A stretch of 64,000 bases of DNA. It comes from Bacillota bacterium. GTDB lineage: Bacteria; Bacillota; Clostridia; Christensenellales; UMGS416. Positions 11,502 to 62,267 of this stretch are shown piece after piece. Position numbers and translations under genes: made by a program. Below the pieces are notes generated by a model. The model ran no database searches and was not told the origin of the DNA. It saw only the letters and a program-made list of their open reading frames with translations. Positions within the stretch are counted from its first letter, which is position 1. Each line of letters starts with the position of its first letter. The DNA is taken from positions 27,544 to 91,543 of the forward strand of contig JAEYPH010000021.1 of assembly GCA_023410875.1 (NCBI GenBank). Reading direction: 5' to 3'.

Positions 11502-12031
11502 GCCTGTTCCTCCGTTTGCATCCGTCCGGCCAGCTTGGCCCGGGCGCGGGACAGCCGGCTCTTGACCGTGCCCACAGGCACTCCCAGCGCCCGCGCCGCC
11601 TCCTCCATAGAGAAGCCCTCCACATACACGATCACGACCGCCAGGCGCAGCCTCTCCGGCAGCGCCAGTATGGCGTCACGCAGGTCCAGCGTGGCGTCGG
11701 CGTCGGTGCTCACGGCGCGGTCCGCCGCCTGCAGCGGCAGCACGCTGCGATAGCGCCGGCACAGCGTGTAGCATTCGTTGAGCACAATGCGCACCAGCCA
11801 CGTACGGAAATACTCCGGCCGGCGCAGGCTGCCCACGCCCCGCCAGGCCTTGAGCAGCGCCTCCTGCACGGCATCGGCGCAATCCTCGTCGCTGCGCAAC
11901 ACCGTGCGCGACACGCGGTAGAGCGTGCGCTCGCAGCTGTGCACCAGACGGCCGAAGGCTTGCGCATCGCCTCGGGTTGCCAGCGCGGCGTCATCGTCGT
12001 GCTGGACCCTTTCGGCGGTTTCCTCGGTCAT
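11498..12031 (-). CDS. ECF-type RNA polymerase sigma-70 family factor
   Basis: 177 aa. Region 2 (CADAVQEALLKAWRGVGSLRRPEYFRTWLVRIVLNEC) and region 4 (VYVEGFSMEEAARALGVPVGTVKSRLSRARAKL). AAGGAGA RBS. Confidence 0.88.
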   Translation of the reverse strand: MTEETAERVQHDDDAALATRGDAQAFGRLVHSCERTLYRVSRTVLRSDEDCADAVQEALLKAWRGVGSLRRPEYFRTWLVRIVLNECYTLCRRYRSVLPLQAADRAVSTDADATLDLRDAILALPERLRLAVVIVYVEGFSMEEAARALGVPVGTVKSRLSRARAKLAGRMQTEEQA

Positions 12032-12151
12032 ATGGGCTCTCCTTTTTGTCGGGATGCATCCGTCCGGATGTTAGATGGTAAAAGTTGAGAAACAGTTTCA
12101 TCCCCATCGAAATGATAGAAAGCGGAGCACAAGCACGCCCGCTTGCTCCGG

Positions 12152-12415
12152 TCAGCCCTCGTAGGCTTCTTTGAAGACCCGAAGGATGTTTTCCTTCTGC
12201 GGCACACCCTCGTGCAGCTTTACACCGCCCACATAGAATGTCGGTACAAAATAATAGTCATAGCGCGCGGCCACGGCGGGTTCGCGGTTCTCGTCGATGA
12301 TTTCCAGCTCCACGGCCTTGTACTCGGGGTGTTCATAAAAGACCTCGTCCATCCAGCGATGGGCGTTTCTGCAATAGGGGCAGGACGCCATCGTGAACAT
12401 CAGTACCTTTTTCAT
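12152..12415 (-). CDS. Glutaredoxin-like thioredoxin-fold protein
   Basis: 87 aa with a CPYC redox motif near the N-terminus (MFTMASCPYCRNA). AGGAGG RBS. Confidence 0.75.
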   Translation of the reverse strand: MKKVLMFTMASCPYCRNAHRWMDEVFYEHPEYKAVELEIIDENREPAVAARYDYYFVPTFYVGGVKLHEGVPQKENILRVFKEAYEG

Positions 12416-12596
12416 GGGGATTCCTCCTGTGTCAGACGGTTTTCCTTATTATACTACAAGCCCGGTGATATAAATATCCTGAGCAGCCGCCCTGGCTTCA
12501 TTGACTCCGGGAACCCTACTTGACCCAGATCGCATCCGTCACTATCCTGTATCCATAATATTTAAGAATAGAAATATTGTCAGTGGAGGAATGAAG

Positions 12597-13628
12597 ATGA
12601 GTGATTGGAAAGCCATGCTCAGAGCAGACGCAACAAGCTGGCTGCTGGAAGAAGATAACCCTTCTGTGCGCTATTTTACATTGAAAAACATTATGGACAG
12701 ACCGGATGATGATAAGGATGTCCAAACCGCTAAACACAGAATCATGCAAACAGGTATTGTGCCCGACATGCTTCAAAGGCAGCGAGAAACGGAGTATATT
12801 CATACTTACCACCGATTCTACACTTACAAATACAAAGGCCTTGTTTGGTCACTGATTACACTTGCTGAATTAGGCGCTGAGGCAACACCCCAAGTTAAAG
12901 AACAATGCGAGTATCTGCTTGAAAATGCACAAGAAAGTCAGGACGGCGGTTTTTCACAAAACACAGCTGTGAGGACAGGCGGCGGCAGAATAACCGAAGT
13001 AATCCCCTGCCTGACTGGAAACATGGTGTGGAGCCTGATACACTTTGGTTATCTCGATGACCCAAGGCTGCAAAAAGGTATTGAATGGATTACTCGGTTT
13101 ATGCGCTTCAATGACGGTGTAGCGGATGACCCGCAAGCCCCGCCATATGATCGTTTGGATATGTGTTGGGGCGCTCACACCTGCCATATGGGTGTAGTCA
13201 AGGCGCTCAAAGGATTAAGTGCCGTACCGTTAGAAAGAAGAACCAATGAAATAAACGACACGATACAAAAAGCGTCGCAATATTTGCTGATTCACCATAT
13301 ATATAAGCGCAGTCATAACTTAAGCCGGACTTCAAAACCGGGCTGGCTCAAATTCGGCTTTCCTCTGATGTATCAGACGGATGTGTTGGAAATATTGGAT
13401 ATCCTGACCGGGTTGGATATCAAAGACAACCGTATGGAGGATGCTATAAACATTATTCTTTCGAAACAAGATGATGACGGCAGATGGAAAGTGGAGAACA
13501 CCTATAACAGTGACCGTTTGCTGGTATCAATCGGACAAAAAGACGAGCAAAGCAAATGGATTACGCTTCGGGCAATGAGCGTACTAAAAAGATACCATCA
13601 TACGCGCATGGCAGGATACGTATATTAA
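12597..13628 (+). CDS. Hypothetical protein, possibly with an alpha/alpha-toroid (prenyltransferase/terpene-cyclase-like) fold
   Basis: Long ORF in a visibly AT-richer stretch. GGAGGA lies 6 nt before ATG 12597. The fold guess rests on remembered similarity only. Confidence 0.55.
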   Translation: MSDWKAMLRADATSWLLEEDNPSVRYFTLKNIMDRPDDDKDVQTAKHRIMQTGIVPDMLQRQRETEYIHTYHRFYTYKYKGLVWSLITLAELGAEATPQVKEQCEYLLENAQESQDGGFSQNTAVRTGGGRITEVIPCLTGNMVWSLIHFGYLDDPRLQKGIEWITRFMRFNDGVADDPQAPPYDRLDMCWGAHTCHMGVVKALKGLSAVPLERRTNEINDTIQKASQYLLIHHIYKRSHNLSRTSKPGWLKFGFPLMYQTDVLEILDILTGLDIKDNRMEDAINIILSKQDDDGRWKVENTYNSDRLLVSIGQKDEQSKWITLRAMSVLKRYHHTRMAGYVY

Positions 13629-13705
13629 ACGTTTTATGCTGCCAAAAGGCTGTATGTGAAATTGATAGCCTCCCTTAAAAGCAAATATATCGCAATGAGA
13701 GAAAG

Positions 13706-58070: not shown

Positions 58071-58099
58071 TGTTTTTCCGTGCCATCGCATGGTATAAT
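58071..58099 (+). promoter_or_regulatory. Candidate extended -10 promoter upstream of the LytTR response regulator
   Basis: TGGTATAAT (58091-58099) with a weak -35, TGTTTT. Confidence 0.4.
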
Positions 58100-58131
58100 G
58101 AAATATCCAGTTTCATGCCACGAGGGTATCG

Positions 58132-58851
58132 GTGTTTAAGGTTGCGTGCTGTGATGACGAGCAAGGAATGCTCGATGTTTTATATAACTATGTTCAGAGA
58201 TGGTCCGTCGAACGGCAGGTACCAGCCGTAACGGCGCTTTTTACCGATGCGATCGAGCTGTTCAGAGAGTTTGAATGCGAGCGCAAAGTCGACCTTCTCT
58301 TCATGGACATCGGGTTTACCAACGCCAACGGCTTTGATGTCGCCAAGATGATCCGCGACCGCAACAAGTCGGTCATCATTGTTTTCATCACCGGCACTCC
58401 ACAATATGCGGTGGATGGGTACCACATCGACGCGTTCCGCTATCTGCTCAAGCCCGTGGCCTATGAGTCGCTGGCTGAGGTGCTGGATAGCGCCCATGCG
58501 AAAGTGAAGGCCCACGAAGCGCAAACAGTCATTTTGAGAGATCAATCGGGCGTTGTCTCGGTGGCGGTGGACGACATCGTGTACATCGAGAGCATCCCCC
58601 ATTACATCGTCGTGCATCTGGTGAACGGCAAGACGTTCAAATGCAGGGGCACAATCCGTGAACTAACGCAGCGACTCCATGGAACGGGCATCCTGCAATG
58701 CCATCGTGCCTTTCTTGTGAATGCCTCTCACATCCACAGACTGCAGGCCGGCACCATTCTGATGAAAACCGGGGAGACCATACCGGTGAGCCGAAGCATG
58801 AAAAAAAGCGCGCTGTCCCAACTGATGAGGAAGGCCGGAGGTATCCTGTGA
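58132..58851 (+). CDS. LytTR-family (AgrA-like) response regulator
   Basis: Receiver residues CCDDE / LLFMDIGF / FITG / LLKP. C-terminal LytTR domain (IVYIESIPHYIVVH...HRAFLVN). GTG start with GAGGG RBS. Confidence 0.9.
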   Translation: MFKVACCDDEQGMLDVLYNYVQRWSVERQVPAVTALFTDAIELFREFECERKVDLLFMDIGFTNANGFDVAKMIRDRNKSVIIVFITGTPQYAVDGYHIDAFRYLLKPVAYESLAEVLDSAHAKVKAHEAQTVILRDQSGVVSVAVDDIVYIESIPHYIVVHLVNGKTFKCRGTIRELTQRLHGTGILQCHRAFLVNASHIHRLQAGTILMKTGETIPVSRSMKKSALSQLMRKAGGIL

Positions 58852-60170
58852 GCATTGAAAGCAAGCTTTTCTGGTTTGTTGCGGAGGTTCTGGTCAATCT
58901 TCTGGAAGTCTCGGTAATCCTGTGGTATCTGCATGTCAAATTAACAACCAATCATGTCCGGCTCTACGTTCACCTAATAGGCGGAGCGTTTTTGCTGGCA
59001 GTTGTATCCCTCAGCAATTTTCTCAGTATAACCGATGGCATCCGGATCCCTGCGGTCGCACTTTGTTTCGTTGGTTATACTTTACTTGTATATAGAGGGC
59101 CACTGGGCAGAAGGATCTTTCAGTCCATGCTGGCATATATTCTGCTGGGAATATCTGATTTGCTGGCAATTTCCTTGTTGACATTTATCCCAGGTGTATC
59201 TTTTGATTTGATCACCCAGCCGACCATTTTTCGTCTGCAATCCATGGTCGCCACAAAGATCCTATTCGTGACCATCATCTATTTTCTGGCGAACATCACG
59301 AAGAAAAGCGAAGAGGTGACGATCGGCAAATATATATGGCTTTTATTTCTCATTGTGCCAGTAACGAGCGGAGGTATTCTGGGTACGCTTATCAACTATG
59401 AACTGCGGCTGAACGATACCAATGCTTTGCCTTTGCTGGTCGCCACCATAGGAATCCTGGTCATCAACATCACCGTGTTGGTTCTGCTGCAGGTTCTGTC
59501 CTTTCACTCCAAGAAAATACTGAATCAAGAGATGCTCCTGCAACAGAACGACATACAAGCCAAATACTTTACAGAAATAAAGTCCACCAACGACAATCTT
59601 CGCGGGTTTCGCCATGACCTGAACAACCATCTGCAAGTATTGCATGGATACATCAGCCTTGGCAAATATGAGAAAGCCAACGCGTATCTCAACGAGATAG
59701 GCGATTTTGTGGCCTTGACGGGAACCCTTACCAATACGGGCCATGACCTTTTGGACGCCGTGATCGGAACGAAGATTACGTATGCAAGGAAGCTTAATAT
59801 ACGAACGGATGTTTATCTGCAGGTACCAGCCAACCTGCCGCTTTCGCAGATGGAGCTGTGCTCGGTGCTGAGCAACATACTGGATAATGCCATCGAGGCG
59901 TGTGAAAGGCTAAAAAGCGGCTCCAGCCCTAAGGAGTTGTCACTTAAGATCGATCAGTTCGCGGGACATTTGCGCATCCTGCTCAAGAACACCGCCAAGC
60001 TGGAGGGAGCGCCTGATCTGGCCAACATGATCTCCACCAAAAAAGAGCCAGGTCATGGGATCGGCCTTTCCAACATGAAGCGCGTGGTGTACAATCACGG
60101 CGGTCAGGCACAGTTTGATTATGGCCAAAATGAGTTTTCCGTGCTGATCCTGCTTCCTTTGAAAAGCTAA
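58848..60170 (+). CDS. AgrC-like membrane sensor histidine kinase (GHKL, HATPase_c_5 type)
   Basis: GTG 58848 overlaps the regulator stop (GTGA) and has a GGAGGT RBS. About 6 TM segments. H-box FRHDLNNHLQVLHGYI, N-box LSNILDNAIEA and G-box EPGHGIGLSN. Confidence 0.85.
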   Translation: MSIESKLFWFVAEVLVNLLEVSVILWYLHVKLTTNHVRLYVHLIGGAFLLAVVSLSNFLSITDGIRIPAVALCFVGYTLLVYRGPLGRRIFQSMLAYILLGISDLLAISLLTFIPGVSFDLITQPTIFRLQSMVATKILFVTIIYFLANITKKSEEVTIGKYIWLLFLIVPVTSGGILGTLINYELRLNDTNALPLLVATIGILVINITVLVLLQVLSFHSKKILNQEMLLQQNDIQAKYFTEIKSTNDNLRGFRHDLNNHLQVLHGYISLGKYEKANAYLNEIGDFVALTGTLTNTGHDLLDAVIGTKITYARKLNIRTDVYLQVPANLPLSQMELCSVLSNILDNAIEACERLKSGSSPKELSLKIDQFAGHLRILLKNTAKLEGAPDLANMISTKKEPGHGIGLSNMKRVVYNHGGQAQFDYGQNEFSVLILLPLKS

Positions 60171-60179
60171 CCCACACCT

Positions 60180-60278
60180 TCTATGCGCAAAAAACCACCT
60201 TTTATGCAAACCCATTGCATAATCTTTTAGAATTCGTTATTTTCTAAAAGTGGATGTAAAATGTTGAAAAGTGGTGTT
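60180..60278 (+). promoter_or_regulatory. Cluster of phased direct and inverted repeats upstream of agrB (candidate LytTR boxes/operator)
   Basis: TATGC(G)CAAA at 60182 and 60203, 21 bp apart. IR TTATGCAA-N5-TTGCATAA (60202-60222). TAGAAT -10-like at 60227-60232. IR CTTTTAGAA-N9-TTCTAAAAG (60224-60250). AAAAGTGGWGT at 60246 and 60267, also 21 bp apart. Confidence 0.4.
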
Positions 60279-60297
60279 TCTTTAGGTGATTGATGCC

Positions 60298-60876
60298 ATG
60301 GCTCAGCGAATCGCATCTTTTCTTGTCAGCAAGGGCGCTGCGGTGCCCGACGATATTGATGTGCAAATCTACGGTCTGCAGGTCATACTCTCAACGTCCG
60401 TCAATCTGGTCGCCGCACTCCTCTTCAGCTTCATCATGGGGCAATTGTCCTTCGGCATCTCCTTCCTGATTGCCTTCATGCTGCTTCGCCGCTTCACAGG
60501 GGGGTATCACGCCAACTCCTATCTTGGTTGTTTCTTGTCGCTGCAGGCAATGTTGCTCGTGGGTTTTGCCAGCCAACGTCTGTATGAGAGCGGCATATCC
60601 GTCGTGTTTCCCTGGGTCCTGACCGCAGTATCCATCGTCCTGATCTTTGTGCTGGCCCCCATCGACCATGTGAACAAGCCCAGCACTCCGGCCTCTCGCA
60701 AGAAATTCCGCTTCCTTTCCCGGGTTATGACGTTGGCACTGGCGGCGTGCGTTGCACCGGGTTTGATGCTGGGGAGCACTTCAGCCTATGCGTTGGGCAT
60801 TCTGATGGCTTTGTTCGCGACCGGCGTCCTGCTGGCCGTGGCAAAAATACGCAAGAAAGGAGGAGCTTTATCATGA
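60298..60876 (+). CDS. agrB: Accessory gene regulator protein B (AgrB, AIP-processing membrane peptidase)
   Basis: AQRIASFLVSKG...IQIYGLQVILSTSVNLV...LLRRFTGGYHANSYLGCFL, the AgrB signature with its His/Cys pair. ATG 60298 is preferred over GTG 60286. Confidence 0.88.
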   Translation: MAQRIASFLVSKGAAVPDDIDVQIYGLQVILSTSVNLVAALLFSFIMGQLSFGISFLIAFMLLRRFTGGYHANSYLGCFLSLQAMLLVGFASQRLYESGISVVFPWVLTAVSIVLIFVLAPIDHVNKPSTPASRKKFRFLSRVMTLALAACVAPGLMLGSTSAYALGILMALFATGVLLAVAKIRKKGGALS

Positions 60877-61007
60877 AAAGACTGTTACAGGCGAATTTCT
60901 TGAAGGCAATCTCCTGGACCGTCGCGGCAGTCGCCGCAATTTCTGTGGGAACTTTCTCGATTTGGGTTGTGCATCAGCCCAAGGTCCCGGCCAAGTTGAT
61001 GAAGTAA
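60873..61007 (+). CDS. agrD: AgrD-like autoinducing peptide precursor (44 aa, Cys-less)
   Basis: ATGA overlap with the agrB stop and AAAGGAGGAG RBS. Reads MKRLLQANFLKAISWTVAAVAAISVGTFSIWVVHQPKVPAKLMK: an amphipathic leader, a hydrophobic core and an xQPxVPxxL tail. Confidence 0.7.
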   Translation: MKRLLQANFLKAISWTVAAVAAISVGTFSIWVVHQPKVPAKLMK

Positions 61008-61020
61008 GGACTTCGTGCAC

Positions 61021-61060
61021 GTGCCGCGGAAACCGTCAGGTTTTCGCGGCACAGTTTTTG
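61021..61060. terminator. Bidirectional terminator after agrD and the convergent gene
   Basis: GTGCCGCGGAAACC-GTCA-GGTTTTCGCGGCAC followed by AGTTTTTGTGTTTT. Confidence 0.75.
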
Positions 61061-61064
61061 TGTT

Positions 61065-61550
61065 TTACCAATTCAAATCCAGCATTTTTAATAGTATGTT
61101 AATATTTCCATTGATATTATAGCAAGATATATGCTCGCTTTCATCAAAAACAACATAGAAAGGTAAATCCTGTTTGGACAGAACAATGTATATCTCTCCT
61201 ATGGATCCACAAATCCATTCGCTTTCGACCGCAACGGGTGGCTCCAGAGGAACCTTAACAATATACCCTTCATCGGGGAAAGGGTTTGCCTTCACATAAA
61301 TGGCATCGGTTTGATTGATCCATTCAATGATCAAATTCCGTATCTCGGGCTTTGCTTGAACGGACTTAACGACCTTATCCAGCCTTGTGTCATATATCTC
61401 GATGTCATTGCCAACATCGTATTCCGCGATGATTGATCTAATTTCCGGCGCCGGCTTCGTTTCATCTATTCCGACACCATTGTATGCATTGGCACCACAA
61501 AGCAAGCCAATGAGCAATAATAACCCCAACGATAGAAGTCTTTTTGCCAT
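61065..61550 (-). CDS. Hypothetical secreted protein (AT-rich gene)
   Basis: ATG 61550 gives MAKRLLSLGLLLLIGLLCGANA-YNG, a signal peptide. I recognised no domain. Lower G+C, like the agr genes. Confidence 0.55.
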   Translation of the reverse strand: MAKRLLSLGLLLLIGLLCGANAYNGVGIDETKPAPEIRSIIAEYDVGNDIEIYDTRLDKVVKSVQAKPEIRNLIIEWINQTDAIYVKANPFPDEGYIVKVPLEPPVAVESEWICGSIGEIYIVLSKQDLPFYVVFDESEHISCYNINGNINILLKMLDLNW

Positions 61551-61631
61551 GGGAGCGAACCTCCTCAGCAAACCTAATATCCCCACTGCAACAAGGAATC
61601 CGCTGGTTATCTGAGGTAGTATGGAGCAAAC

Positions 61632-61691: not shown

Positions 61692-62267
61692 TCAGAGATT
61701 ACCTTTTAGCCCCAGCGCCTCGGCCTGCTCGCGCATGCCCAATATGGTCTGATTGATCAACGCATCCAGCTCCATGCCCAGCATCTGGGCACCGTCGGCG
61801 ATGACCTGCCGGTTGACGCCCGCAGCGAAGGCCGGCGTCTTGTATTTCTTCTTGACCGAGCTGACCTCCAGGTCCAACAGGCTCTTGCTGGGGCGCATCA
61901 CGGCCACGGCGGCGATGAGCCCGGTCAGCTCGTCGGTGGCAAAGAGTGCCTTCTCCATCATATGCTCGGGCTTGCAATCCACGCTCACCAGCCCCCAGCC
62001 GTGGCTGGCCACGGCATGCACGACGTCCTCATCCACGCCGCGCTCCCGCAGGATCTCCTGTGCCTTGCTGCAGTGCTGCTCGGGGAACTGCTCGAAGTCG
62101 ATGTCGTGCAGCAGGCCCACAACCGCCCATTTCTCCTCATCGCCAGCGTTCAGCAGCCTGACGAAGTGGCGCATCACGGCCTCCACCGCCAACGCGTGGC
62201 GGATGTGCCAATCATCCTTGTTGTATTCCCGCAGCAGCGAAAGGGCCTGTTCTCTGGTCGGTATCAT
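61692..62267 (-). CDS. HD-domain (HDIG-type) metal-dependent phosphohydrolase
   Basis: IRHALAVEAVMRHF...VVGLLHDIDFE...VASHGW. Confidence 0.85.
   Translation of the reverse strand: MIPTREQALSLLREYNKDDWHIRHALAVEAVMRHFVRLLNAGDEEKWAVVGLLHDIDFEQFPEQHCSKAQEILRERGVDEDVVHAVASHGWGLVSVDCKPEHMMEKALFATDELTGLIAAVAVMRPSKSLLDLEVSSVKKKYKTPAFAAGVNRQVIADGAQMLGMELDALINQTILGMREQAEALGLKGNL

Follow-up and report, generated by a model that had tools for sequence, protein, structure and literature searches.

A probable agr-type quorum-sensing module with a predicted serine-lactone signal in an uncultured high-G+C Bacillota bacterium

We analysed a 64,000-nt stretch of a Bacillota bacterium genome (assembly GCA_023410875.1, contig JAEYPH010000021.1; in the following "the window"), for which a preliminary description based on the sequence alone had proposed an agr-type quorum-sensing cluster. 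The open reading frame (ORF) list, the sequence and family scans agree on four co-oriented plus-strand genes in the order agrA-agrC-agrB-agrD, and each of the four products matches its family; the proposal holds. The gene identities, the catalytic and phospho-acceptor residues, the conservation of the ring-position serine as well as of promoter and repeat blocks, and the purifying selection make it probable that this uncultured high-G+C Bacillota bacterium has a complete and functional agr-type module for peptide quorum sensing that works as proposed below. Judging from the AgrD sequence, the product is most likely a serine-lactone autoinducing peptide (AIP) with the ring SIWVV. The locus adds to a well-populated, already annotated and partly characterised class, and it does not represent a new mechanism.

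Gene families and the AgrD precursor

AgrA matches the Pfam models Response_reg (5.3e-14) and LytTR (4.2e-20) as well as the NCBIfam model AgrA (4.1e-11, under the equivalog cutoff). Its matches in the PDB are ComE (4cbv) and the LytTR domain of AgrA (3bs1), and the receiver residue Asp59 can be read from the translation in the context ...LLFMDI.... AgrC matches the Pfam models SPOB_a (2.5e-13) and HATPase_c_5 (3.9e-16); its best NCBIfam match is staphylococcal AgrC (2.5e-13), and its sole PDB match is the kinase module of S. aureus AgrC (6e52). The kinase module is preceded by a polytopic N-terminal sensor (about residues 1-215) with 6-7 hydrophobic segments. AgrB matches the Pfam family AgrB (PF04647, 1.3e-31), and a sequence search of AgrB against the PDB returned nothing at E <= 1. 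None of the three proteins reaches the equivalog cutoff of its staphylococcal NCBIfam model (AgrA, AgrB and AgrC).

In an alignment of AgrB with 10 homologues (A1), His75 and Cys82 (in GGYHANSYLGC), R68 and G72-G73-Y74 are invariant. The catalytic pair of S. aureus AgrB was reportedly assigned to H77/C84 by Qiu et al. in 2005, and the 7-residue spacing of H75/C82 equals that of this pair. The GTG start of agrB is supported by a conserved MIDAMA N-terminus, which begins at an ATG in L001, one of three "Bacillota bacterium" metagenome-assembled genomes (MAGs; L001, L002 and L003) that represent a close relative.

The AgrD peptide, MKRLLQANFLKAISWTVAAVAAISVGTFSIWVVHQPKVPAKLMK, has 44 residues and is free of Cys. 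It passes the NCBIfam model TIGR04223, "AgrD family cyclic lactone autoinducer peptide", with 33.6 bits (E 3.1e-8, cutoff 19). The gene was called independently by gene callers in five other assemblies, always with a 4-nt overlap with agrB, and the ratio of non-synonymous to synonymous substitution rates (dN/dS, Nei-Gojobori) is 0.18 in comparison with L001 and 0.19 in comparison with L061, a more distant relative. The TIGR04223 score, the independent gene calls and these ratios show that agrD is not a chance ORF. The preliminary description had proposed exactly this gene, i.e. 44 codons that start in an ATGA overlap with the agrB stop and encode no Cys, with a Ser at the ring position; it had also named the absence of the ORF from syntenic relatives as a possible finding, and the ORF turned out to be present in them.

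Three close AgrD homologues (P0001-P0003) were found among 5.8 billion proteins, i.e. ...GTFSIWVIHQPKVPAKLMK, ...GTLSTWVVYQPKVPAKLMK and ...GTLSTWVIYQPKVPAKLIK. They are Cys-free, and all of them have kept Ser29, Trp31, Val32 and the QPKVPAKL tail. Four ring variants occur in this clade (SIWVV, SIWVI, STWVV and STWVI); Ser29 is invariant, and variation is seen at positions 30 and 33 of the ring and at +1. Ser29 occupies the position of the ring Cys, five residues before the motif [H/Y]QPxxP, with an invariant Pro at +6 after the ring. In an alignment of 34 AgrDs that is gap-free to this Pro (A4), the Ser29 column contains Ser in 30 and Cys in 4 sequences, and Pro39 is invariant. The retention of Ser29 in all clade variants and the purifying selection on agrD indicate that it is conserved rather than decayed, and a strain-specific Cys-to-Ser decay, which had been considered from the beginning, could be ruled out on the same grounds. 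Because Ser29 is found at the ring-Cys position and is conserved, the 5-residue SIWVV lactone ring put forward in the preliminary description is a reasonable prediction.

Closure of the ring by Thr27 or Ser24, which would yield a 7- or 10-residue lactone of GBAP-like size, is very improbable. Both residues are invariant within the four-member clade, and the ring of E. faecalis GBAP has 9 residues. However, among the 34 diverse AgrDs a consistent Ser or Cys is seen in the -5 column alone, the Thr27 and Ser24 columns are not conserved, the Cys-type relatives P0015 and P0016 have their Cys in the Ser29 column, and the verified ring of C. thermocellum is closed on the Ser at -5.

For comparison, we scanned 185,579 species genomes with degenerate patterns from the AgrB alignment and obtained 56 loci, mostly from Oscillospiraceae, Ruminococcus and Lachnospiraceae MAGs. 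The gene order, determined by tblastn with AgrA and AgrC of the window, is A-C-B in 33 loci, C-B in five and B-(D)-A-C in five. In nearly all of these loci, agrB is directly followed by an AgrD-like ORF. The order A-C-B-D had been described correctly; the label "inverted" does not apply, because most of the related loci have this arrangement (33 of 56, plus the five with C-B). A Ser is found five residues before [H/Y]QPxxP in 47 of the 49 distinct AgrD peptides derived from these loci.

A profile search with AgrD against the 5.8 billion proteins yielded 371 clusters at E <= 0.01, and the best 117 new ones were typed. About 110 of these have Ser at the ring position and seven have Cys, in a sample that favours Ser types, since most of the sequences behind the profile are themselves of this type. 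Counted automatically, the residues were S 95, C 7, G 13, H 1 and T 1; the 15 G, H and T calls are register slips of the regular expression onto a second ..EPKKP motif, and these peptides are Ser-type by eye. Of the 95 peptides assigned to the Ser type by the regular expression, 55 are entirely Cys-free, and several of the matches have already been named "cyclic lactone autoinducer peptide" by NCBI. Given these values and the 47 of 49 locus-derived peptides, the Ser, which had been regarded as unusual, is not. The basic AgrD tail is present as described, and it is not distinctive, because basic tails (...QPKEPKKLKK...) are the rule among related AgrDs. In gut and rumen Clostridia, the serine, the order A-C-B-D and the basic tail are all usual, and the literature already contains them.

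Cys-type peptides occur in just one of the 56 related loci, where two tandem AgrD-like ORFs follow agrB in a Ruminococcus MAG (L018, 4488-4810; ...CGFTFYQPKEP and ...CHCWFAQPVEP). In many relatives (L004-L016 and others), the Ser-type AgrDs also have a Cys in the predicted ring, e.g. SDWCA, SCAGY, SHYGC and SICGM, and thus the ring nucleophile is ambiguous from the sequence in those relatives.

Regulatory elements and proposed mechanism

Upstream of agrA, a candidate extended -10 element, TGGTATAAT, is identical in L001 and L003 and reads TGATATAAT in the diverged L061, and its conservation suggests a separate agrAC unit. The left edge of the cluster had been set at 58071, a position that is 61 nt upstream of the agrA start, out of frame and inside this promoter region, and it could not be retained.

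The 115-nt spacer between agrC and agrB contains a tandem direct repeat of 12 bp, CACCTTCTATGC / CACCTTTTATGC, 7 nt upstream of a candidate promoter. The repeat pair occurs only once in the window, and shuffles gave an expectation of 0. Both promoter hexamers are unchanged in L001 and L003 and nearly so in L061, and the repeat cores with their 21-bp spacing are conserved in all three, though the spacer overall is only about 62% identical to that of L001. Two imperfect direct repeats with a 21-bp period beside a -35 element are the classic architecture of sites for LytTR regulators. This likeness points to an AgrA-activated agrBD promoter, and the repeat is likely a candidate AgrA site that would provide autoinduction. 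Beyond the agrBD site, no further copies of the repeat motif, which could have indicated a regulon, were found in the window, and a scan of the whole window at Rfam gathering thresholds revealed no RNAIII-like or other RNA family.

Just after the agrBD -10 element, the window and its own species (L059) contain about 15 extra bases (60244-60258). These include AAAAGTGG, which duplicates part of the conserved block AAAGTGGTGTTT, and they are missing from L001, L003 and L061.

Table 1. Features of the agr locus. Positions refer to the window; control elements and ring are predictions
Feature	Position	Strand	Description
Candidate extended -10 for agrAC	58091..58099	+	TGGTATAAT; read from the sequence, putative function
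agrA	58132..58851	+	Response regulator (receiver and LytTR), 239 aa, GTG start, phospho-acceptor Asp59
agrC	58848..60170	+	Sensor histidine kinase, 440 aa, GTG start, GTGA overlap with agrA stop
Tandem direct repeat	60175..60207	+	CACCTTCTATGC / CACCTTTTATGC, start-to-start distance 21 bp; putative site for a LytTR regulator (AgrA)
Candidate agrBD promoter	60215..60243	+	TTGCAT - 17 nt - TATTTT, read from the sequence
agrB	60286..60876	+	Membrane peptidase/cyclase, 196 aa, GTG start, His75 and Cys82
agrD	60873..61007	+	AIP precursor, 44 codons, no Cys; ATG overlaps agrB TGA as ATGA
Predicted lactone ring codons	60957..60971	+	Ser29-Ile-Trp-Val-Val33, placed by column in gap-free alignment A4 with reference to the invariant Pro39 and Gln35
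Intrinsic terminator	61021..61066	+	14-bp stem (61021-61052), then T-run; closes the unit at about 61066
Convergent low-G+C ORF (orf173)	61065..61586	-	173 aa (161 aa in the gene call); lies beside the locus and is not counted among its core parts

From these data we infer the lactone chemistry, the N-terminal processing, the DNA binding and the regulon of the following model. The genes agrA and agrC would be transcribed from their own extended -10 promoter, and agrB and agrD would form a second, translationally coupled unit behind the conserved promoter with its upstream repeats, at which AgrA would bring about autoinduction. AgrB would use His75 and Cys82 to cleave AgrD after Val33, which would release the HQPKVPAKLMK tail and form an acyl-enzyme. 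The hydroxyl group of Ser29 would then resolve the acyl-enzyme to give the 5-residue lactone Ser-Ile-Trp-Val-Val, and some peptidase would remove the leader, leaving no tail or a short tail. The exported peptide would be sensed by the polytopic sensor of AgrC, resulting in phosphorylation of AgrA at Asp59.

Several points weigh against this model. The Pfam AgrD model PF05931 gives no match to the 44-aa peptide, and the repeat sequence is unlike the S. aureus AgrA box, so that the match is one of architecture only. The residue before Ser29 is Phe, which is a poor -1 residue for signal peptidases, and a tail-free Ser-lactone might rearrange. The product of such a rearrangement would be different: if the leader were cut right before Ser29, an O-to-N acyl shift by the alpha-amine of Ser29 would convert the lactone into a homodetic cyclo(SIWVV). 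We regard this outcome as unlikely. An analogous thiolactone-to-lactam rearrangement has been shown in Ruminiclostridium cellulolyticum (Molloy et al., PMC8251862), the verified relative from C. thermocellum is tail-free (PMC5322536), and most relatives have a G-[SA]-[AT]-S motif that is suited to cleavage directly before the Ser. In contrast, a lactone that matched the synthetic standard was reported for C. thermocellum (PMC5322536), the Phe at -1 is not a small residue and makes a tail-free product less certain, and esters are, by established chemistry, less activated than thioesters. The in vivo lactone status is a question for the whole class of Ser-type clostridial AIPs, of which the C. 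thermocellum peptide alone has been verified, and is not specific to this locus.

Genomic context and sensor divergence

The same arrangement is found at the same chromosomal place in another genome of the same species (GCA_023393195.1), in the close relative (L001/L002/L003) and in the more distant L061. The shared neighbours are URO-D upstream and the HD, 197-aa and radical-SAM genes downstream. In the window, the segment 57901-61691 has a G+C content of 48.5%, compared with 63.4% elsewhere, and no other stretch of 3.8 kb is lower; the G+C content at third codon positions (GC3) is 0.59-0.68 in the agr genes versus 0.77-0.87 in the flanking genes. The four co-oriented genes thus lie on DNA of lower G+C content, as had been noted. 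The accompanying term "island" is justified by composition and not otherwise, because at least three diverged lineages have the locus at this very place in the chromosome. A recent island insertion was ruled out by synteny in lineages with a synonymous divergence (dS) of more than 1 for agr genes, and an ancient horizontal origin is plausible from the composition.

The atypical G+C content and GC3 would also be compatible with a decaying or silent remnant of horizontal acquisition, in which the AT-rich genes would be unexpressed or AgrD unprocessed and the Ser would be a loss-of-function substitution. We consider such a remnant highly improbable: all four ORFs are intact and translationally coupled, the catalytic residues have been kept, dN/dS is 0.09-0.30 for all four agr genes, synteny extends to at least three diverged lineages, and Ser is the norm in hundreds of AgrDs.

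The clade to which the locus belongs is narrow. The identity of AgrB to proteins outside the clade does not exceed 37%, and the AgrD clade comprises four clusters among the 5.8 billion proteins. A HMMER search of 1.84 billion representatives with a profile of the clade AgrDs found only two genuine distant relatives, both Cys-type (CNWIT and CIFIV), and one spurious long protein. These results show that this AgrD clade is rare, though the Ser-type class is common.

The divergence within the clade is unevenly distributed. We compared positions 58848-60285 of the window, plus the flanks, with L001 (4004-5413). The flanks and agrA have nucleotide identities of 89-95% and agrD of 92%, followed by agrB with 82% and the kinase part of agrC with 78.5%, whereas the values are 62% for the agrC sensor and also 62% for the agrC-agrB spacer. 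The dS values are 0.16 for URO-D, 0.29 for agrA and 1.8 for the whole of agrC, with saturation in the sensor. The three AgrC sensor alleles are 52-62% identical to one another. From these comparisons, the diverged sensor and spacer appear to resemble an agr-group-like hypervariable segment or the trace of an old recombination, and would represent a possible case of agr-group-like sensor diversification outside staphylococci. Pherotype divergence stays a hypothesis, because the predicted rings of the window and L001 differ by Val/Ile only. A more far-reaching view, in which the Ser-type AgrDs here and in Oscillospirales/Lachnospiraceae end, through an ester-primed O-to-N acyl shift, as homodetic cyclic pentapeptides and the strongly diverged AgrC sensor alleles of near-identical genomes mark true pherotypes, is unlikely; if it were true, the alleles would be signal-specificity groups in uncultured high-G+C Bacillota despite the single Val/Ile difference in the ring.

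Downstream of the terminator, orf173 has a GC3 of 0.45, a signal-peptide-like N-terminus, and no Pfam or NCBIfam family. It is missing from L061, and L001 has a barely similar 181-aa ORF instead, which shows that the slot beside the agr locus is variable; its absence from L061 rules out orf173 as a component of the system. At 61692-62267, the window has a gene for a 191-aa HD-domain protein; the corresponding region of L001 (6967-7559) contains two ORF calls (68 and 128 aa) without a Pfam match and may be a frameshifted HD gene. The only other patch of low G+C content in the window (about 12000-13700, 45-51%) encodes an 87-aa glutaredoxin/NrdH-like ORF with a CPYC motif (12152-12415, minus strand) and a 375-aa ORF of unknown family (12501-13628, plus strand).

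Comparison with known systems

The locus adds a sequence-divergent and lineage-restricted agr module with the predicted signal (x)SIWVV to the large Ser-type catalogue of anaerobic Bacillota, and its practical value is that of a candidate for studies with synthetic AIPs or heterologous agrBD expression. The S. intermedius group had been named as the sole known precedent for Ser-lactone AIPs. This view was too narrow, because GBAP, the C. thermocellum pentapeptide and C. difficile agr2 also belong here; lactone AIPs have been documented for S. (pseud)intermedius and E. faecalis GBAP (PMC12312760). Molloy et al. call cyclisation by Ser "rare" among characterised AIPs; they showed an S-to-N shift for tail-free clostridial AIPs and write that what becomes of the Ser-lactone ones "remains to be clarified" (PMC8251862).

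The verified counterpart is Clo1313_2818 of C. thermocellum (Clostridium/Acetivibrio), which shares the Ser nucleophile and the 5-residue ring. Its product is a tail-free lactone pentapeptide, S25-F29, followed by Y30 ... P35 in the precursor, and was confirmed by liquid chromatography with tandem mass spectrometry against a synthetic standard (PMC5322536). The Ser-to-Pro spacing is equal to that in the window (S29-V33, then H34 ... P39), and in both precursors the residue after the ring is aromatic or a His, with a conserved Pro 6 residues past the ring. In contrast to the window, which has all four genes together, the C. thermocellum agrD is an orphan without adjacent agrB, agrC and agrA.

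C. difficile R20291 agr2 is also a four-gene locus. It has been described as a "complete agrACBD operon" with an AgrD2 that lacks the ring Cys (PMC4885068), and its predicted AIP has been tabulated as NSA[SSWVA] (PMC12312760; already in PMC3673130, 2013). The published gene order is inconsistent, since the table in PMC12312760 gives agrB2D2C2A2 and PMC4885068 gives agrACBD. The ring S-S-W-V-A shares S-x-W-V-x with SIWVV. C. difficile proteins were not among the listed matches, and no close sequence relationship to the locus in the window was detectable; C. difficile is a low-G+C pathogen, whereas the host of the window is an uncultured Bacillota with 62.5% G+C.

In Ruminococcus, Oscillospiraceae and Lachnospiraceae, the TIGR04223 loci share with the window the order A-C-B-D, the Ser at -5, a basic [HY]QPKxP tail, and an agrD that directly follows or overlaps agrB. 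The AgrB of the window is 21-37% identical to theirs, and its AgrD differs by a more hydrophobic leader and an all-hydrophobic ring without the common W-G motif.

The agrBDCA loci of S. aureus and S. pseudintermedius, the latter with the Ser-lactone RIPT[STGFF] (PMC12312760), share their logic and all four protein families with the locus. In addition, the sensor is hypervariable between close relatives in the clade of the window, as in the staphylococcal agr specificity groups. The differences are the order A-C-B-D versus B-D-C-A from P2, the separate putative agrBD promoter and the basic instead of acidic AgrD tail, and staphylococcal RNAIII, which is transcribed divergently from P3, has no counterpart in the window, according to the Rfam scan. 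E. faecalis fsrBDCA resembles the locus in its Ser-lactone type of signal, which is made by an AgrB homologue and sensed by AgrC/AgrA-type proteins; GBAP, however, is an 11-mer with a 9-residue ring, the gene order is BDCA, and fsrD lies in frame within fsrB.

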